NCBI GenBank assembly: GCA_964634125.1
Contig: CAZWIP010000001.1
Coordinates: 1 to 59,979, forward strand
Origin: an uncultured Dehalococcoidia bacterium
GTDB taxonomy: Bacteria; Chloroflexota; Dehalococcoidia; SZUA-161; SpSt-899
Reading direction: 5' to 3'
Length of the DNA stretch: 59,979 nt
Positions 50,249-59,816 of the stretch are shown here, one piece after another; positions within the stretch are counted from its first letter, which is position 1, and the number at the start of each line of letters is the position of its first letter. The notes beneath the pieces are model-generated. The model was not told the DNA's origin, made no database searches, and saw nothing but the letters and a program-made list of their open reading frames with translations. A program made the translations under genes and the position numbers.

Positions 50249-53200
50249 ATGGATAAACAACTACACGATCTGATCGACATTATCCAATTCACTGAGAACG
50301 TTACGGCAAAGATTCATAGTTTACGTGATAGAACGGAAATATTCAAGGTTGTTGTTGAGGAATTCAGGTACTCGGGACGGTTTGTTGCCACCATTTTATT
50401 GCTGACCGAAGATGGATCATCGCTCAAACTTTCAGATACTTCGCTTTCATCACACAACCTCAAAGCAATGGAGAAAGCCGGCGGATTGTTCAAAGAACAC
50501 TACCGGATGGATTTACAGAAATCGAATATCTTCAAACAAGTAGCAAAAGACGGAGAAACAACCATTGCGAACGGACCCGAAATTCTCAGCGAATTATTCC
50601 CACGGCCACTCGTCTCAGTAATTGTAAAAGTCATGGGATTAGGTAACCAGCCCTCTATTTTAACTCCTCTGTATCAGCGTAAAAATATTATTGGTGTACT
50701 TTCATTGAGTGCCCCCGAACACGTTGACTACTTCACCGCCTCCGTGAAGATCCTGTCTCACCACATTGCCATTGCTCTGGAACTTGCTGATGAGTATGAT
50801 GAACGCAAACAAGCAGAGAACGCACTTCGAGACAGTGAAGAGAAGTACCGGACTTTGGTGGAACAGTCACTGCAAGGACACCTTATTCTCCAGGATGGTC
50901 GCATCGTATTTACTAATCAGTCTTTTGCGACTATTTCGGGATACTCAATAGAGGAACTCCTGGCCTTCAGTCCTCAGCATGTAGGAGAAATGGTTCACAC
51001 CGAAGATCGATCGTGGGTTTCCGAGCGTTTCCAAGATAGAATGACAGGAAAGACGGTCCCCCTGCAATATGAGTATCGACTTCTTCGAAAAGACGGTATA
51101 GTTTGCTGGGTTGAGACAAATACAGACAGAATCAATTTCTCAGGGAAGATTGCAATGCAAGCCACCTTCCTTGACATCACTGAACGCAAGCAAGCAGAGG
51201 AAGAAACCAAAAAACTCAATGTTGAGTTAATGGAAGCAAACACAATCCTTGAAGAGGAAATTACAGACCGTAAACAAGCCGAGGAAGCCCTCAAACAAAG
51301 TGAAGTGCGTTTTCGCACTTTGCTTGAAAATGCTTCGGATGGTGTAGCCATTGTCGATGGGTACGGGACAGTGGCATATACATCCCCCTCTAATGACAGG
51401 GTACTTGGTTTTGAATCAGGTGAATCAGGAGCTGTAACTTTGTTCGACCAGATTCACCCCGATGATCGAGAGAGACTTGCCAAAGATTTTTCAAGGATAC
51501 TAAAAGAACCACAAGAAAAAACCACTTCAAACTATCGTGCTCTTCACAAGAATGGCCAATGGCGCATGATTGAAGCCACCGGCCAAAACCTGCTCGATGA
51601 TCCCATCATCCAGGGAATAGTTGTAAGCTTCAGAGATGTCACCGAAAGTATACAAGCCGAGGAGGCATTGAAAGAAAGCGAGGAGAAATTCAGGAACATC
51701 TTTGATAGCGCCAACGACGAAATTATATATATTGACGAATCAGGCATAGTTCTTGATGTAAACGATAGGGTAAACGATATTTTTGGTTATTCGCGAGAGG
51801 AATTGGTTGGGAAAAATTTTGCCGATTTCAACTTCATAAGTGCTGAAGGTATGGAATTCCTAGCTACTCAATTTTCCGAAGCAATCAGCGGCGGTTCCAT
51901 TCCGCTGACTGAAGTCGATATCGAGCGCAAAGACGGGACTACAGTTTCTGTTGAGTTAAGTGTAAGAATGGTCCAGGTTTCCTCTGAGTCACATGGCCTT
52001 CTCATCATCGTTAGAGACATCACTGAACGCAAGAATGCTGAGGAAGAAACTAAAAAACTCAATGTACAGCTTATGGAAGCGAATGTAGTTCTAGAAGAGG
52101 AAATCAGCGAACGCAAACAGGCCGAGGCGGCGCTGAGATATCGCGAGGAGCGTTTCCGCTCCATGATTGAGAACGCTGATGACGCCATTACTTTAGTGGA
52201 TATTGAAGGTATTATCCAATACGCAAGTCCATCGCTCGAACGCTTCGCTGGATATAAGCCCCAAACATTGATTGGAACCCCCTTTAGAGAATATATGCAC
52301 CCAGACGATTTCCATGCTATGGAGAGTAATCTTACCAAAATCATCAGCAGCCCTGGACATGCTGAGTCTATTGTTATGCGGCTCAAACGCAGCGACGGCT
52401 CATATTGCTGGGTAGAGGGAGTTGGCAAGAACTTCCTCGAATATCCGCAGGTGAATGCTATCGTCTGCAACTACAGGGACATCACAGAGCGTAAACAGGC
52501 AGAGGAAGCACTCCAGAACTCAGAGGCTCACTGGCGATCCCTGGTTGAGAACGCACCTAATATCATTATGTCCGTAGATAAAAATGGCACCATTTGGTCC
52601 ATCAATCGTATTGTTCCAGGACTTACTTCAGAACAGGTAATTGGTGATAAAATATACGATTTCATAGATTCGGAATTCGATAGCACGGTCCGCCAAATCA
52701 TCAAACAGGTATTCAAAACCGGCAAACCCGGGGCTTACGAGGCAAAAGGAACCGGACCGGATGGCAGTGTTTCATGGTATGAAAGTCAAGTCGGACCTGT
52801 AGAGCAGGATGGAGAGGTCATTGCCCTCACTTTGATTACCACCGATATTACCGATAGAAAGAACTCGGAAGAAGAGATACTCCTGCGTAACCGTGAACTG
52901 GCTGCTTTAAATGATATTGCTCAAACAATAAGTCAATCGTTAGATTTGGATGTGATTCTTAACAACGCTTTCAATAAAACTACGGAGATTTTGAACATAA
53001 AGAATGGTAGCGTCCACATAGTAGACAGAGAAGAAGAACTGTTGATAATGCGGGTTTCAGCTGAGCCAATAGACGAAGACCTGGAGAAATTCCGCGTCAT
53101 AAAAATGGGAGAGGGTCATATAGGGATAACAGCAAAGTCGGGCGAACCTTTATTTATTGAAGCACTTGATCGGGCAGTAGATTTGTTGCTCAACGGTGGC

Positions 53201-54136
53201 CCCGAAGTGATTTCAAAACGTCGACTCGGATCAGCTATGTTTATTCCCCTCAAAACAAAAGGGAATGTATTAGGAGTTATGGCTGTTTTTACAGGAGAGA
53301 AGCGGGTATTCACTTCAGATGAAAGAGAGCTTCTAATTACCATCGGGCATCAAATCGGTACCGCTATCGAAAACACTCAGCTCCTTGAAGAAGTATCTCG
53401 TACCGAAGCATTGGAGGAACTCGATAAGTTAAGAACCGCGCTTCTTGCCAGCGTATCACATGAATTGCGCACACCGCTAACTTCCATCAAAGGTCTTGCC
53501 AGTACGCTTACTCAACCGGATATCGAGTGGGACACCGAGACCCAGCAAGACTTCCTTAAAATCATTGACCGGGAATCAGACATATTAACTCACATCGTCG
53601 AGGATTTGATGCAAATGTCACAGATGGAAGCTGGAATAATGAGCATGGAGAAGACTCAAAGTAATATCACTTTTATTGTAAACCAGCTTGTCGACAAACT
53701 TAATGGCCTAACAATAGCCCATGAATTTGAAATCGAAATACCGGCCGAAACAGCACTAATTTACGCTGACGAGATACGCATCGGAGAAGTTATCACCAAC
53801 CTGGTGGCCAACGCTGCCTCTTATTCTGAGGAAGGCACACCGATTATTTTGAGAACCGACCAAACAGATGGGCATATAATAGTCAGCGTCACCGATCAGG
53901 GTATCGGTATTCCACCCGAACACGTTGACAAAGTTTTCGATCGGTTTTATAGACTGGAGAGTGGTGTAGCTCGCAGAAGGGGAGGTACCGGACTCGGATT
54001 ATCAATTTGCAAAGGTATTGTGGAAAGCCATGATGGTAGTATCTGGGTAAAGAGCACCCCTGATAAGGGTTCAACGTTCAGTTTCAGTCTACCTATTGCT
54101 GACAATTCTAAAATGACATCTACCGAACGGACATAA
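50249..54136 (+). CDS. multi-domain sensor histidine kinase (GAF - 5x PAS - GAF - HisKA - HATPase_c), no TM segment
   Basis: The H-box is SHELRTPLTSI and the G2 box is GTGLGLSICKGIV. Five PAS units are each preceded by an (I/V)T(E/D)RK.AE-type linker. N-terminal and pre-HisKA GAF-like regions are present. 1295 aa. Confidence 0.9.
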   Translation: MDKQLHDLIDIIQFTENVTAKIHSLRDRTEIFKVVVEEFRYSGRFVATILLLTEDGSSLKLSDTSLSSHNLKAMEKAGGLFKEHYRMDLQKSNIFKQVAKDGETTIANGPEILSELFPRPLVSVIVKVMGLGNQPSILTPLYQRKNIIGVLSLSAPEHVDYFTASVKILSHHIAIALELADEYDERKQAENALRDSEEKYRTLVEQSLQGHLILQDGRIVFTNQSFATISGYSIEELLAFSPQHVGEMVHTEDRSWVSERFQDRMTGKTVPLQYEYRLLRKDGIVCWVETNTDRINFSGKIAMQATFLDITERKQAEEETKKLNVELMEANTILEEEITDRKQAEEALKQSEVRFRTLLENASDGVAIVDGYGTVAYTSPSNDRVLGFESGESGAVTLFDQIHPDDRERLAKDFSRILKEPQEKTTSNYRALHKNGQWRMIEATGQNLLDDPIIQGIVVSFRDVTESIQAEEALKESEEKFRNIFDSANDEIIYIDESGIVLDVNDRVNDIFGYSREELVGKNFADFNFISAEGMEFLATQFSEAISGGSIPLTEVDIERKDGTTVSVELSVRMVQVSSESHGLLIIVRDITERKNAEEETKKLNVQLMEANVVLEEEISERKQAEAALRYREERFRSMIENADDAITLVDIEGIIQYASPSLERFAGYKPQTLIGTPFREYMHPDDFHAMESNLTKIISSPGHAESIVMRLKRSDGSYCWVEGVGKNFLEYPQVNAIVCNYRDITERKQAEEALQNSEAHWRSLVENAPNIIMSVDKNGTIWSINRIVPGLTSEQVIGDKIYDFIDSEFDSTVRQIIKQVFKTGKPGAYEAKGTGPDGSVSWYESQVGPVEQDGEVIALTLITTDITDRKNSEEEILLRNRELAALNDIAQTISQSLDLDVILNNAFNKTTEILNIKNGSVHIVDREEELLIMRVSAEPIDEDLEKFRVIKMGEGHIGITAKSGEPLFIEALDRAVDLLLNGGPEVISKRRLGSAMFIPLKTKGNVLGVMAVFTGEKRVFTSDERELLITIGHQIGTAIENTQLLEEVSRTEALEELDKLRTALLASVSHELRTPLTSIKGLASTLTQPDIEWDTETQQDFLKIIDRESDILTHIVEDLMQMSQMEAGIMSMEKTQSNITFIVNQLVDKLNGLTIAHEFEIEIPAETALIYADEIRIGEVITNLVANAASYSEEGTPIILRTDQTDGHIIVSVTDQGIGIPPEHVDKVFDRFYRLESGVARRRGGTGLGLSICKGIVESHDGSIWVKSTPDKGSTFSFSLPIADNSKMTSTERT

Positions 54137-54236
54137 CAATAGTGCACACGTGATGCTTGATTTGCCTGTATGAAGTGAAAATACGTTCAGAGCAGCTTTG
54201 CTGTGCATAACGTGGAGCTGCGGAAGGAGAATCACA

Positions 54237-55649
54237 ATGGCATCGATTTGTTTCGTCGGACCGTACCCACCTATCATGTGTGGAATTGCCACCTACACCA
54301 GCTACCTGACAAATGGCAGTCCTGATGGGAAGTGGGGAATGTTATCCTTTGATTTAACAACATACGGAGCACCCCTGACAGACGATGCAAAAGGTGACCA
54401 CATCTGGTATGGAATCCCAAGCCGTAATGACTTTTCCTCATCACACATCATGAACGGGTTGAACCAACTCAACCTATCCACCACTGAAACTGTCCTTTGG
54501 TTCCAACATGAAACAGCTATTTGGGATCCGCCACAGAAGTTCATTACAGTTCTCAAGCAACTAAATATGCCCAAAGTGGTTTCATTTCATACTCTTCACT
54601 TTCAGAGTGATGAAACTCCCAGCGGATTGCGCCAGTATCAATACGACCTGCTCGAAGGTCTATTGCCCTGTGTTGATGCCATAACCGTATTTACTTACGG
54701 TGTTTACAGAGCTGTTATTTCAGCATTTCCTGAATACTATGCCAAAATATTTGTAACTAAACACGGCATACATGCGTACCCTGAAATCAGAAGAATGAGC
54801 CGAAAAGACTCCAGAGAGAAGCTCCTCGACTTCCTGCTCTATGAATCAGATCTCGATCAGTCAACAAAAAAATCTTTACACAAGCACCAGGTTCTCCTGG
54901 ACCCAAATGCGATAATTATTGGTCAAACTGGTTTTTTATGTCCACTTAAATCTTCCGAATCACTCCATTATGTAAGAGACAAACTGCAAGAGCTAATCCC
55001 GAATAAAAGAATCGTAGCCATGCGCATCGGAATGGCAAGGGAAGAAACCCAACAAGCTTATGCCCGCCAGCTTCGAGCTGTTTTGAACAATGCAGATTCA
55101 TTACTCATCGAAACCTGGCTTCCTCCGGATATCCTTCCTCTAGCCCAGAGAGCCTTTGATATCAATTTCTACTGGCCCGAAGATTGCACTCAAAGCGGTG
55201 TTGTGGCACATGCTCTTGGGGCAGGGGCAGTTGTTGCAGGTCGTGATCTTGAGGGGGTGGGTGAAACCCTTAGAGAGGCTGGACAGATCGCAGACACAGA
55301 TATCAACAACTTGATAATGAAGATAAAACATCTTGTACTCGATTCAGACCTTCGAGAAAAAACAGAAGAAAAAGCATTGAGTTACGCTGAAGAGTTCTCT
55401 TGGGAAAAGCAAGCCTCGAGACACTATGAACTTGCCGAACCTATTGTCCGTACCACACCTCTGTGGGAAAAAACTCGAATGCCTTCTGCGATCAATTCCA
55501 TAGCTGCATCAGTGGCTCGCCAAGCAAACCAGGATCTGCCAGTTCATAGCCAACAACTCCCCAAAGATACCAGGCCACCGATCAGCAAGACAAAGAAACG
55601 GTTTAATCCAAAATCCCAAAGTGAATTATCGATTGATGATACACCTTAA
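54237..55649 (+). CDS. GT-B fold glycosyltransferase, GT4-like
   Basis: The N-terminus MASICFVGPYPPIMCGIATYT is typical of GT4 enzymes, and a C-terminal nucleotide-sugar-binding half is present. I chose ATG 54237, preceded by GGAAGGAGA. Confidence 0.8.
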   Translation: MASICFVGPYPPIMCGIATYTSYLTNGSPDGKWGMLSFDLTTYGAPLTDDAKGDHIWYGIPSRNDFSSSHIMNGLNQLNLSTTETVLWFQHETAIWDPPQKFITVLKQLNMPKVVSFHTLHFQSDETPSGLRQYQYDLLEGLLPCVDAITVFTYGVYRAVISAFPEYYAKIFVTKHGIHAYPEIRRMSRKDSREKLLDFLLYESDLDQSTKKSLHKHQVLLDPNAIIIGQTGFLCPLKSSESLHYVRDKLQELIPNKRIVAMRIGMAREETQQAYARQLRAVLNNADSLLIETWLPPDILPLAQRAFDINFYWPEDCTQSGVVAHALGAGAVVAGRDLEGVGETLREAGQIADTDINNLIMKIKHLVLDSDLREKTEEKALSYAEEFSWEKQASRHYELAEPIVRTTPLWEKTRMPSAINSIAASVARQANQDLPVHSQQLPKDTRPPISKTKKRFNPKSQSELSIDDTP

Positions 55650-55708
55650 GAAATCGTATTTGTCTTAGTTAAATATTTGCCATAATTTCCGTTTGAAGGA
55701 GATCGTAA

Positions 55709-58700
55709 ATGAAGAACTCCCCTGCTAACCGCGCGCTTTCCAACAACTCTCTATCAAAAACACAGATACATCCATTTGAGAAGATAGAGGAGCGCTTCAC
55801 GCAAGTCATGCAGGGGCCCATGGAGCAAGCACGACGAATAAGAGAAGCTGATATCGTTATCGGTATCCCCTTTTATAATGAAACTGATACTATTGCACAC
55901 GTAATAAATACAGCACGGGAAGGCTTGAAAAAATACTATCCAGGTCAAAAATCCGTCATCGTAGCTGCCGGGTCCACAGTAGGAGATAAAGCACTCGAGA
56001 TCATTAATAGTATTCCTCAAGAGAAGAAAATAGACCAAATAGCTTTCTTACTCAATGATGAACGACTCAATGGAAAGGGGTGGGGTGTTCGGGCTATTAT
56101 TGAAATATCCCAGAGTTTGGGTGCCGACAACATAATTCTGGAGGCTGATTTAAAAAGCCGTAGAAGTGATGGCAGAATCGAGGGCCTGGCCCCAGACTGG
56201 GTTTACCTTCTTCTTGAACCAATCCGAAGTGGCCAGGCGGATATGGTCATCTCACGATTCAATCGCTACTACCTTGAGTCCCCCATCTCTTCTTTCATTG
56301 CCCATCCATTGCTTACCGCAATCTACAACTGCCCTATTCATCGTCTCGTAGGGGGACAGTGGGGAATCTCTCACGAATTGCTCCGAAGCCAATTTAGATA
56401 TCCCAGAAATCTGTGGAGCAGCGACATAGGTGGGTATGGTATAGATAATTGGATAGCAAATGCAGCAATCGTAAGCAATTCCGTTATTTGTGAAGCCAAT
56501 TTGGGAATCAAGATACACAAACTATCGATCCCTAAAAATGAATTGGTATTGCGCCAATTAGCCGGTGCTCTTTTTGCTCAAATTGTAGATGACAGAGAAT
56601 GGTGGGAAGATATCGATAAAATCCGCAATCAGCCGTATCTCAAGCCACTAGCAACATTCGGGGTCAAGAAACTGGATAAGCCGGACCATGTTGATATAAG
56701 CCCTGAAAAAGCAATAGCTCGATATCGGCAGGGGTTTGACAAATTCCATCTGCTTTACAAAAGAGTTCTTCCAAACGATACATATTTAGAATTGGAAGAA
56801 CTGGCTTCAGCTAATACTGACCAGTTTTCGGTTAGTCACGATCTGTGGACTCGCGTCATTTATCACCTTTTACTCGCCTACGCCTTTGGTAAGGATTTCG
56901 CCAAGGGTGACTTATTAGATTCATTGATCCCCCTGTACAATGCCTTCATGGCAAGTTTCGCTCTGCATATGAAGCTGCTTCACAATAAACTGGAACACCT
57001 GCCCATTGAAGAAAGAGACCGGCTGGTATATCTGGAAACTGAGAATAAATTTGAAGCCCTCACAACTGAGTTTCTTCGACAAAAACCTGAGTTTGTTGCC
57101 AGTTGGGAGATTTCCGAAGAGGCACTCAAACCACCGGTCCCACAGATCACTTATCGTGAGTTTATACCCGGAGTTCCTCTGATAGTGCCCACTGAACTAA
57201 CAACTTCTGAAGGCAAGATAGTCCGCGCTAACGAAATATATGATTCTGTTTTCACGAAACAGAAAGCGGGATTTGAGCACTATATATACGAACGTTTGAA
57301 TGTACCACGAGACGCCAGTTCCCTGGAAGTATCCCTGGCAATAAAAGATTTCATGCATTCAGTTGAGAGCGAGATACTCCCAGATATCGACTTGACAACA
57401 GTCGAGGGTACACAAGAGATGGTCAATACCATTATAGAAAACCTCCCACACGGGGATGGATTCTCTTTGATACCTGAGATGGCATCACGGTTCCTGGCGC
57501 AACACCCTCCTATTAGCCTCCTGACCAAATTGGGATACTCATATTTGGATCAGCTATTGGAAGACTATGATCCTCTCGACATCATGGCATTGGCCACATG
57601 GTCTGAAGAACGTGAATATTCAAGCGGATTATGGGATCTACTGGCAGATAACATCCGTCCGGAGCATTTCGTACCGTGTAAAATAAAGCCATTAGTAGTA
57701 ACTCATGAGGACTTCCCATCACTGGTGGAGATGAAAGATTCATCCGCTCTCGATAGACTGACTTCCAGAATAGTTGTAAGTAACATTCACAAAGGTATGG
57801 GAGGAGAATTCCCAAAACTGAGATACTTGACAACCATCGGCAAGAATATCGTGGAAGCAGAGAGATTTGCCAATATTTGGAGAAGGTTCGCTGCAGAAAG
57901 AAAGGACTTCGGCCGCAAAGTGCTGGATTCTATCAGAGGGCACTGGGGCAAAGAACCGCTATCGGCGCACTTTATCTTCGAAGATGGTCACCAACGTATT
58001 TTGGTTGAGCGCGTCAGGGAGATGGTGGAAAGAATCGATAAAGAAGAGGAAAATGGTGATCGGGCTCGCTTCGCCCGGTTTAAACACCTCAGGGACCTGT
58101 GTGAATGCTATCATTTAGCGCTTGCACTTCCAGACGGCAAATTCGTTACTTGCTCGGCCTGGTCATGGGCAAGCTACAGCTTCAAAGGCGGTAGGGCTTC
58201 TCCCTCCCCGCTTTCTTTACACGTAGAGAGGGACTGGTCTTCACGAGAATTCCTCGTCGAATATTACAAGGCAATTGGTGGAACTGAAGAAGAGATCGAA
58301 GAGAAGATTATCGAGCTCATTGAGCAAGGCAGGGAATCGGAAAACCTGGCCCCAATCCTTTTGGGAGAAGAGAAAGGAGCTGGAAAAGTAGTATCAAGGG
58401 AGGCCACGATCATCTCGCCCGAGTACCCACCAGCAAAGAGCCTGAATCGATTCGATGGCAATCCTATTCTTGAACCCATCAAAGAGCACTCATGGGAATC
58501 AAAATATGTTCTCAACGCTGCTTGTATCCGCTTGAATGGTAAAGTCCATTTAGTTTATCGAGCCTTTGGAGAAGATAAAATATCCCGCTTGGGGATGGCT
58601 ATCAGTGAAGATGGTTTCAATTTCACTGAAAGGTTGGATAAACCGATTTTCTCACCCAATCATGCCAGCGAAAAAATGGGTTGCGAGGATCCTCGTTTAA

Positions 58701-59383
58701 CGTTGATTGGCGATCGTATTTATATGACTTATACTGCTTACGATGGACTGGTAGCACAAATTGCTCTGGCCTCTATTGGTGTAAAAGAATTTCTCCAGCA
58801 TCGCTGGCGAGCATGGCGCAGACATGGCCTTGTGTTTCCTGGTTTCGATAATAAAGATGCGATAGTATTCCCTGAAACATTTAATGGGAAATATGCTATG
58901 TTACATCGTGTTGATCCTCATATATGGATAACCTTTTCACCTCACCTTCGCTGTCCATGGCCCCGCAGAGAGCATAAAATACTGGCAGGAACAACGACAG
59001 GAATGATGTGGGATGGGAGAAAAATCGGGGCCGGAGCTCAGCCTATTAAAACAAAATTCGGTTGGCTTTTGATAACCCACGGTGTTGATTATGATCACGT
59101 TTATCGTCTGGGTGTAATGCTCCTGGATTTGGCAGATCCCTCCAAATTGAAATATCGCTCACCCAACTTTATTCTGGAGCCCGAAGCCCAATGGGAGCTT
59201 GGGAAAGACGATACTTCCTGGGTGCCCAACGTCGTCTTTACATGCGGGGCCCTTCCCCTGGCAGATCATATTTTCTTCCTCAGTGCCGAAGATGAAATAA
59301 TCGTTTACTACGGCTCGGCCGATACAGTAATGAGTGCGGCTACTACTAAAGTCGGAGACCTTATCCCTAAGGAGTTCCGGTAA
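55709..59383 (+). CDS. fusion protein: GT-A glycosyltransferase (mannosylglycerate/glucosylglycerate-synthase-like) + helical middle region + GH130-like (DUF377) beta-propeller
   Basis: The N-terminus carries IVIGIPFYNE, NGKGWG, LEADL, APDW, VGGQWG and YGIDNW, which echo blocks I recall from Rhodothermus mannosylglycerate synthase. The C-terminus from ~aa 908 carries FDGNPILEP, NAACIRLNGKVHLVYRA, GCEDPRL and YMTYTAY, typical of GH130/DUF377. Confidence 0.85.
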   Translation: MKNSPANRALSNNSLSKTQIHPFEKIEERFTQVMQGPMEQARRIREADIVIGIPFYNETDTIAHVINTAREGLKKYYPGQKSVIVAAGSTVGDKALEIINSIPQEKKIDQIAFLLNDERLNGKGWGVRAIIEISQSLGADNIILEADLKSRRSDGRIEGLAPDWVYLLLEPIRSGQADMVISRFNRYYLESPISSFIAHPLLTAIYNCPIHRLVGGQWGISHELLRSQFRYPRNLWSSDIGGYGIDNWIANAAIVSNSVICEANLGIKIHKLSIPKNELVLRQLAGALFAQIVDDREWWEDIDKIRNQPYLKPLATFGVKKLDKPDHVDISPEKAIARYRQGFDKFHLLYKRVLPNDTYLELEELASANTDQFSVSHDLWTRVIYHLLLAYAFGKDFAKGDLLDSLIPLYNAFMASFALHMKLLHNKLEHLPIEERDRLVYLETENKFEALTTEFLRQKPEFVASWEISEEALKPPVPQITYREFIPGVPLIVPTELTTSEGKIVRANEIYDSVFTKQKAGFEHYIYERLNVPRDASSLEVSLAIKDFMHSVESEILPDIDLTTVEGTQEMVNTIIENLPHGDGFSLIPEMASRFLAQHPPISLLTKLGYSYLDQLLEDYDPLDIMALATWSEEREYSSGLWDLLADNIRPEHFVPCKIKPLVVTHEDFPSLVEMKDSSALDRLTSRIVVSNIHKGMGGEFPKLRYLTTIGKNIVEAERFANIWRRFAAERKDFGRKVLDSIRGHWGKEPLSAHFIFEDGHQRILVERVREMVERIDKEEENGDRARFARFKHLRDLCECYHLALALPDGKFVTCSAWSWASYSFKGGRASPSPLSLHVERDWSSREFLVEYYKAIGGTEEEIEEKIIELIEQGRESENLAPILLGEEKGAGKVVSREATIISPEYPPAKSLNRFDGNPILEPIKEHSWESKYVLNAACIRLNGKVHLVYRAFGEDKISRLGMAISEDGFNFTERLDKPIFSPNHASEKMGCEDPRLTLIGDRIYMTYTAYDGLVAQIALASIGVKEFLQHRWRAWRRHGLVFPGFDNKDAIVFPETFNGKYAMLHRVDPHIWITFSPHLRCPWPRREHKILAGTTTGMMWDGRKIGAGAQPIKTKFGWLLITHGVDYDHVYRLGVMLLDLADPSKLKYRSPNFILEPEAQWELGKDDTSWVPNVVFTCGALPLADHIFFLSAEDEIIVYYGSADTVMSAATTKVGDLIPKEFR

Positions 59384-59392
59384 AAAAAGGAA

Positions 59393-59488
59393 TGGCGGGA
59401 GCGAGGGGAGTCGAACCACCATGAGCATCGAAGGATACCCACCAACGGTTTTGAAGACCGCGAGCACCACCGGGCACCATTCGCTCCC
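59393..59488 (-). tRNA. selC: tRNA-Sec (anticodon UCA)
   Basis: - Length and ends: 96 nt; the reverse complement reads GGGAGCGA-AU-GGUGCC-CGGU-GGUGCU-C-GCGGU-CUUCAAA-ACCGU-... and ends ...UUCGACU-CCCC-UCGCUCCC-G-CCA.
- Acceptor stem: extendable to 8 bp.
- D-arm: 6-bp stem with 4-nt loop.
- Anticodon loop: CUUCAAA.
- Variable arm: 7-bp stem GGGUAUC/GAUGCUC.
- 3' end: the CCA is encoded. Confidence 0.8.
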
Positions 59489-59496
59489 AGCTTCAG

Positions 59497-59525
59497 ATTT
59501 TACCCCAATTTGCTCCTGAAGTCCA
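59497..59525 (-). promoter_or_regulatory. promoter candidate for selC
   Basis: On the minus strand: TGGACT (complement of 59520-59525), a 17-nt spacer, then TAAAAT (complement of 59497-59502). The -10 element ends 8 nt before the tRNA 5' end. Confidence 0.4.
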
Positions 59526-59618
59526 CGATTTGGCGACATTTATGGACCGGATAGAGATATTGAGCGCAGTGGCAGGGATATCAAATGGTATCCAGACCTA
59601 TTTCTGACAACACTACTT

Positions 59619-59816
59619 TTACTTTTGAGTTTCCATTTTCACAGCGCGTCTTCGCCAATCGATCCAAGAAACAAGGGCATCCCACTCTTCCCAACTCAGA
59701 GCTTCTTCCCAGCCAGTCCTGTGATGGGCATCTTCGAGTCTTATTACCACCCCTTCAGGCCGATCCTTTATTACAATTGGGTGTGGCGCTGCGTTTTTCA
59801 ATTCGTACTTCGCCAT
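59619..59816 (-). CDS. small hypothetical protein (65 aa, Trp/acidic-rich)
   Basis: ATG preceded by a strong SD (AGGGAGGTG, then 4 nt). I recognise no motif. It lies upstream of selC on the same strand. Confidence 0.55.
   Translation of the reverse strand: MAKYELKNAAPHPIVIKDRPEGVVIRLEDAHHRTGWEEALSWEEWDALVSWIDWRRRAVKMETQK

Follow-up and report, generated by a model that had tools for sequence, protein, structure and literature searches.

A three-module protein joining a mannosylglycerate synthase-like glycosyltransferase to a GH130 phosphorylase-type domain in an uncultured Dehalococcoidia bacterium

Mannosylglycerate synthase (MGS) of Rhodothermus marinus (glycosyltransferase (GT) family GT78; PDB 2bo4, 2bo7 and 2y4m) is a free enzyme of 397 aa with a two-domain fold. 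The β-1,2-oligomannan and β-1,2-mannobiose phosphorylases Teth514_1788 and Teth514_1789 of Thermoanaerobacter sp. X-514 (glycoside hydrolase (GH) subfamily GH130_6; PDB 9fj8 and 7fip) are likewise free proteins, of ~300 aa. Their genes are clustered with those of ManC and a GT4 mannosyltransferase, and their discoverers raised the question of where the substrate of these phosphorylases comes from (PMC4264767). Here we describe a gene in a stretch of 59,979 nucleotides (hereafter the window) from an uncultured Dehalococcoidia bacterium (GenBank assembly GCA_964634125.1, contig CAZWIP010000001.1, positions 1 to 59,979 of the forward strand). The 1224-aa product joins an MGS-like GT-A module (module A), a domain without a known family (module B) and a GH130 phosphorylase-type module (module C), and the gene is preceded by another that encodes a GT4-like protein.

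In Leishmania, β-1,2-mannosides serve as a reserve, and fungi carry them as surface caps; to our knowledge, no prokaryotic producer has been established. The mannogen mannosyltransferase-phosphorylases (MTPs, GT108) of Leishmania and the GH130_4 enzyme Uhgb_MS are dual mannosyltransferase-phosphorylases built on a five-bladed propeller (PMC12814180). Their chemistry is that proposed here for module C, namely β-1,2-mannoside synthesis from mannose 1-phosphate (Man-1-P) or GDP-mannose and phosphorolysis, but they are single-module proteins without a GT-A domain or module B, and Uhgb_MS has a lid that is missing in module C. The Mycobacterium tuberculosis enzyme GpgS (GT81) primes methylglucose lipopolysaccharide with glucosylglycerate, so that an intracellular polysaccharide begun on a glycerate-linked primer would not be without precedent (PMC2581804). 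Uncharacterised modular sequences named "GH130-GT81" were counted in CAZy in 2018, with neither a function nor a middle domain mentioned (PMC7660257); they hold the same pair of modules in one polypeptide, although their identity with the present family could not be checked. This count was the sole trace in the literature on GH130 with Dehalococcoidia or with mannosylglycerate, where we found no characterisation and no characterised protein with the A-B-GH130 fusion.

Sequence comparisons and structural models led us to read the protein as a cytoplasmic three-module carbohydrate enzyme, in which an MGS-type GT-A domain and a β-1,2-mannoside phosphorylase, with a GT4-type partner, would make and recycle a mannoside. 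We put the probability of this coupled-enzyme reading at about 0.5.

The fusion gene and its two putative catalytic modules

The three-module gene occupies positions 55709 to 59383 (+ strand), and its ATG lies 7 nt downstream of a Shine-Dalgarno sequence, GAAGGAG (55695 to 55701, + strand), read from the sequence. A first-pass annotation, made from the sequence alone, had placed this open reading frame (ORF) and the one before it exactly where we found them, with the caveat that the long frame could be an assembly fusion of two genes. A word-seeded search with residues 1-900 yielded more than 275 full-length proteins, nearly all of 1200 to 1250 aa and all with GH130. Most were from Dehalococcoidia, and their sole annotation was "glycosidase". 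The shorter matches were close fragments from contig ends. We also scanned species-representative genomes for module B (247 genomes, 80 loci kept), and the A-B-GH130 frame was open from end to end, without stops, in ~60 of the 80 loci, while a form split between A and B-GH130 was present in just two. An assembly fusion or a split gene was rejected on these grounds. No signal peptide or membrane segment was apparent in the 1224-aa protein by eye.

Module A (residues 22-473; 55772 to 57127, + strand) consists of a retaining-type GT-A core (residues ~48-272) followed by a helical bundle (residues ~274-473). It was compared with known structures by use of an AlphaFold2 model of residues 1-915, which had a predicted local distance difference test (pLDDT) score of 83. 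The top Foldseek matches were R. marinus MGS, with an E value of 2e-10 and template modelling (TM) scores of 0.74 to 0.77. VIA-align superimposed module A on MGS (PDB 2y4m/2bo7) with a Z score of 32 and a root mean square deviation of 2.9 Å for 353/377 residues, and the superposition ran from residue 49 to 464 of the model and from residue 2 to 381 of the MGS chain, so that the two domains of the GT78 fold, GT-A and helical, were both covered. The GT81 enzymes GpgS and MpgS came next with Z scores of ~20, over the GT-A core only, and M. tuberculosis GpgS gave no match to the MGS-type helical domain. The earlier call of an MGS-like GT-A domain with a helical follow-on region is therefore upheld by the fold. 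Nor did the module fall into an unrelated GT2 family: Pfam GT2 (PF00535) aligned with residues 51-135 only and scored 23.1 bits, under its gathering cut-off of 23.3 bits. At the sequence level, module A and MGS share 14 to 16% identity with no match between hidden Markov models (HMMs), and MGS is a free enzyme, whereas module A is fused to two more modules.

The motifs picked out at first pass are present in module A, and IPFYNE (53-58), GKGW (122-125), EAD (145-147), GGQWG (215-219) and YGID (243-246) showed little or no variation among 31 homologues with 48 to 83% identity. Active-site residues were assigned provisionally, from the order and spacing of these motifs relative to the published GpgS/MGS site (PMC2581804). 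By this assignment, E58 would be the ribose-binding Glu, K123 the Lys of the Asp-Lys-acid network, E145-A-D147 the DXD-type motif, H270 the metal-ligand His, and Y243 and D246 the aromatic-x-x-acid sugar-binding pair, and LVGGQ (213-217) would correspond to PLGGE. The motif-level equivalents in MGS are E11, K76, D100-A-D102, W189/D192 and H217; module A differs in having Glu as the first residue of the DXD motif and LVGGQ where MGS has PLGGE. E58, K123, EAD 145-147, Y243/D246 and H270 are all conserved within the fused family.

Compared with 71 stand-alone relatives of ~420 aa, the fused family has G88 in place of Asp, E145 in place of Asp and Q217 in place of Asp or Glu. The site of module A looks live, with an altered donor pocket. 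The loss of the Asp at 88 and of the acid at 217, together with a Pfam GT2 score just short of threshold, would also suit a degenerate, noncatalytic module A that binds a ligand or oligomerises, in which case the protein would be a regulated β-1,2-mannoside phosphorylase. We hold this to be most improbable, because E58, K123, EAD 145-147, D246 and H270 have been kept across at least 50% sequence divergence, which is not expected of a dead site.

Module C (residues 912-1218; 58442 to 59362, + strand) is a GH130 five-bladed propeller of the β-1,2-mannoside phosphorylase type and is GH130_6-like. Pfam GH130 (PF04041) matched residues 934-1218 with an E value of 1.9e-52 and 178.6 bits, far above the curated cut-off of 26, in agreement with the GH130-like domain recognised at first pass. 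Its best sequence matches in the PDB were the Thermoanaerobacter β-1,2-mannoside phosphorylases 9fj8 (E 3e-59) and 7fip (E 8e-59). Module C and these proteins (E ~1e-59) have all catalytic, phosphate-binding and β-1,2-determining residues in common, and both lack the GH130_4 lid, but the Thermoanaerobacter enzymes stand alone whereas module C is part of the 1224-aa fusion.

Residue roles were taken from alignments with Uhgb_MS and Teth514_1788 (PMC12814180). N936, R951, E993, D994, K1049, R1067, K1105, H1124 and D1205 were invariant or nearly so in 64 fused homologues; R951, E993, D994, K1049 and R1067 were strictly invariant, and position 1105 was Lys or Arg in 63 of the 64. D994, which is the catalytic Asp, and the three basic residues that bind phosphate (K1049, R1067 and K1105) align with D137, K184, R202 and R242 of Uhgb_MS and place module C in the phosphorylase subgroup. 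E993 is the Glu that marks β-1,2 specificity and R951 is the +1-subsite Arg, as in GH130_4 and GH130_6, and equivalents of Uhgb_MS R47, E136, D137, K184, R202 and R242 are all present. The loss of the catalytic Asp and phosphate-binding residues, which had been named as a ground for doubting a GH130 enzyme here, was thus not observed. The Trp that limits chain length in Teth514_1789 is replaced by Ala in module C, so that longer acceptors are, from the alignment, not obviously excluded. The NCBIfam equivalog model for β-1,2-mannobiose phosphorylase (NF052550) gave 254.6 bits against a cut-off of 450 bits, and module C is accordingly a relative of that enzyme rather than the same enzyme.

Module B, architectural variants and distribution

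Modelling set the boundaries of the three modules at residues 22-473 (A), 474-905 (B) and 912-1218 (C). The first-pass annotation had left a middle region of ~600 aa unassigned. Such a region does exist, but because the MGS-type helical domain reaches approximately residue 473, it shrinks to ~430 aa. This is module B (57128 to 58423, + strand), a conserved α/β domain with the aromatic hallmark SAWSWASYSFKGG and several conserved acidic residues. Modelled alone, it had a pLDDT of 88 and a predicted TM score (pTM) of 0.88. Foldseek against the PDB gave nothing at E values up to 0.001; the Atlas gave structures with TM scores below 0.27 and no usable match by features; an NCBIfam search gave no match; and no Pfam family recurred across 38 module-B members, at most two of which shared a weak match. 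The best hits in a VIA-wide search were DUF885 proteins (Z 7.8), followed by zincin-type peptidases (Z 4 to 6), all within the noise range of the tool. We did not accept a zincin identity, given these scores and the lack of an HEXXH motif in the domain. A complex prediction for module B with the upstream GT4-like protein scored 0.00 and gave no evidence either way. Module B is always attached to a sugar-transfer module, and we presume that it is a scaffold or a glycan-binding or glycan-handling domain that couples such modules.

The 247 species genomes with module B belong to Dehalococcoidia, peat archaea, Bacillota and others, and most carry it as A-B-GH130. When the class was sampled evenly, 15 of 301 genomes had it, with a concentration in a few families, and four of the seven genomes of the source organism's own family have it; the source genome has one copy. 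The remaining architectures comprise B-GH130 alone (P0195); A-B followed by a TreT-type GT4 (PF21269 and PF00534) in place of GH130 (P0176 with 19 members, P0192, and L072:3-6026 on the + strand), the Omnitrophota form of which has an extra 630 aa at the N-terminus; and a GH130-GH130-module B protein of ~1060 aa without a GT-A domain in six Dehalococcoidia loci (L049, L050, L062, L064, L067 and L069). Each of these six loci has a further GH130 gene before the fusion, and in L050, the one example examined with Pfam, a C-terminal DUF5679 is present as well. The TreT-type variants are consistent with an A-B core that is paired with a second sugar-adding module.

Module A also occurs outside the fusion. 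An exhaustive profile search found ~1900 relatives, among them many free proteins of 400 to 435 aa that match module A alone. In one polypeptide of 1807 aa (P0239), a distant relative of module A is joined to a haloacid dehalogenase (HAD)-type hydrolase domain, an arrangement that resembles the synthase-plus-phosphatase set-up of two-step glycosyl-phosphoglycerate pathways.

Some of these relatives bear on a glucose-based alternative. Module A would then be glucosylglycerate synthase-like and use UDP- or ADP-glucose, and GH130 or a TreT-type GT4 would add a second sugar to give a β-linked solute similar to mannosylglucosylglycerate. Consistent with this, stand-alone relatives match the GpgS model NF010496, albeit weakly (49 to 73 bits, E 1e-13 to 1e-20), domains of the glucose-transferring TreT type replace GH130 in the variants above, and di-hexosyl-glycerate solutes do exist (PMC3736172). 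However, the best structural match of module A by a wide margin is the mannose enzyme MGS, and the +1-subsite residues of the GH130 domain match those of mannose-accepting enzymes. We consider the glucose-based pathway decidedly unlikely.

The full fusion was also found in metagenome-assembled genomes of archaea from peat or fen, labelled Methanomicrobia or Methanobacteriota (L023, L028, L031, L032, L034-L036 and L041). In a quick maximum-likelihood tree of module B, eight peat-bog archaeal sequences fell inside Dehalococcoidia with support of 95 to 100, the GH130-GH130-B forms made up one derived clade, and Bacillota formed a separate deep clade. The archaeal placement suggests inter-domain transfer, although the tree was midpoint-rooted after a short search and is therefore consistent with transfer rather than proof of it.

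The upstream gene, its neighbours and mannose metabolism

Directly before the fusion gene, in the same orientation and separated by a spacer of 59 nt, lies the gene of a 470-aa protein (54237 to 55649, + strand). Its longest frame opens with a TTG at 54198, but the family HMM matches only from frame residue 14, which is the ATG at 54237. We set the start at this ATG on account of the HMM match and of a Shine-Dalgarno sequence, AAGGAG (54224 to 54229, + strand), read 7 nt upstream. A promoter and terminator scan of positions 54000 to 59700 gave counts at the level of shuffled sequence and was uninformative.

The 470-aa protein has no Pfam match of its own and a weak match to MshA (E 1.2e-3), and a profile of its family found no match among PDB sequences. 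The family comprises 454 or more homologues, mainly from Dehalococcoidia, with conservation on a par with that of the fusion protein. PF13439 (Glyco_transf_4) was matched by 17 of 32 members, with a best E value of 1.4e-6, and the Atlas feature neighbours are GT4 families. By these comparisons, which favour the GT4-like call made at first pass, the protein is probably a divergent GT-B enzyme of the GT4 type. In 18 of the 80 loci, a clear orthologue (P0002 family) is found no more than ~1.2 kb from the fusion gene, in most cases immediately before it: 15 orthologues precede the gene on its own strand at gaps of less than 300 nt, one is 660 nt and one ~1.2 kb upstream, and two are downstream. 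A different GT4-domain protein of ~760 aa adjoins the fusion gene in 13 further loci. The search for the same fusion and its gene neighbours revealed a conserved fusion with a recurrent GT-B-like partner.

In five Bacillota/Dethiobacteria loci, the fusion gene has genes for ManC, a phosphomannomutase (PMM)-family protein and a phosphomannose isomerase (PMI)-type cupin at a distance of no more than 6 kb. These neighbours would also be expected if the GH130 domain served salvage only, phosphorolysing imported or recycled β-1,2-mannosides to Man-1-P, which would be converted to GDP-mannose and spent by module A and the GT4 protein on an unrelated glycoconjugate, with no common product. The nearest characterised GH130 enzymes, the genes of which cluster with ManC and GT4, were proposed to have such a role (PMC4264767). 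In the source genome, moreover, one of two free GH130 paralogues adjoins a major facilitator superfamily (MFS) transporter gene. Three results oppose the salvage explanation: the A-B-C fusion is stable in ~60 of the 80 loci across phyla, which argues for coupled chemistry; no transporter or secreted glycanase genes adjoin the fusion gene at this locus; and no ManC-type gene (TIGR01479, PF22640) was matched in the source genome, which is 94.7% complete. On balance, salvage alone appears unlikely.

Of these paralogues, one of 375 aa is encoded at G000:C132:7215-8072 (L003:1252-2376, +) and one of 366 aa at G000:C148:2143-3006 (L005:1453-2550, -), the latter being the one next to the MFS transporter gene. 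Both are 66% identical to module C and contain the GCEDPR motif. The source genome has neither a canonical MpgS nor a true GpgS. It does have other sugar-1-phosphate nucleotidyltransferases, and a 276-aa NTP-transferase had its best match, below threshold, to a mycobacterial ManB-type protein. A match to PGM/PMM domain I at G000:C10:2591-3004 (L092) falls within an open frame of unusual length, reported as 1452 aa, which may encode a further fusion protein of sugar-phosphate metabolism.

Other genes flank the pair. A selenocysteine tRNA gene (tRNA-Sec, anticodon TCA; 59394 to 59489, - strand), confirmed by ARAGORN, lies on the other strand, 10 nt past the stop of the fusion gene, and at the locus of a relative (L002), the orthologous fusion gene is closely followed by selA and a selD-like AIRS gene. 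Directly 5' of the gene pair is a gene for a 1295-aa histidine kinase with GAF, five PAS and GAF domains (50249 to 54136, + strand). The order of kinase and gene pair is kept in the contig of an 83%-identical relative, and a different set of response regulator and kinase precedes the orthologue at L001.

A possible synthase-phosphorylase and its significance

In the coupled-enzyme reading, module A would be a metal-dependent retaining GT-A enzyme. It would most likely use a nucleotide sugar as hexose donor, probably GDP-mannose for the transfer of mannose, and a small acid such as glycerate as acceptor, with mannosylglycerate as the most likely product. Module C would act as an inverting GH130 phosphorylase that interconverts α-Man-1-P plus an acceptor mannoside and a β-1,2-extended product plus phosphate, in either direction. 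Related enzymes also have a weak transferase activity that depends on GDP-mannose. With both modules at work, the product of module A would be extended to a mannoside that could be broken down again by phosphorolysis when required. Candidates for this mannoside are a short solute linked to glycerate and a β-1,2-oligomannan reserve primed by glycerate. The GT4-like protein encoded just upstream probably works with the 1224-aa protein, as a GT4 partner would in many lineages. The first-pass annotation had envisaged either a cycle of making and breaking or a synthesis in two steps, with a mannosyl compatible solute or a glycan as the product; this idea fits the comparisons made here, and the ManC, PMM and PMI neighbours lend it further support.

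Several results weigh against this reading. The arrangement of the modules relative to one another is uncertain in the model of residues 1-915 (pTM 0.53). In sequence, module A does not resemble GT78 MGS: a PDB search for MGS-type (2bo4-type) chains with its sequence and with a 31-sequence profile found none at E values up to 10, and the GT81 GpgS model NF010496 scored 11.4 bits (E 0.12) on residues 1-480, against a cut-off of 262 bits. No equivalent of the glycerate-binding Thr139 of MGS could be mapped in module A. G88, E145 and Q217 sit where the donor is usually contacted, so that these changes could reflect an unusual donor or an altered activity. The failure to match a ManC-type gene in the source genome counts here too, and the neighbourhoods of the fusion gene differ among lineages and are not conserved throughout.

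A bolder form of the coupled-enzyme reading is that the A-B-GH130 protein and its GT4 partner are the synthase-phosphorylase of a hitherto undescribed glycan inside the cell, a glycerate-primed β-1,2-oligomannan or "prokaryotic mannogen", with module B as a new glycan-binding or catalytic fold that passes the chain between the active sites. We regard this as doubtful. If true, it would give Dehalococcoidia, peat archaea and anaerobic Bacillota a carbon reserve or stress solute of this kind. Module B is in any case a well-folded family of 430-residue domains without annotation, and phosphorylases that form β-mannosidic bonds are sought-after biocatalysts. Bacteria and archaea alike have retained the fusion of a synthase-type GT, a phosphorylase and module B in one piece, which suggests a self-contained mannoside pathway in anaerobes that are hard to culture.

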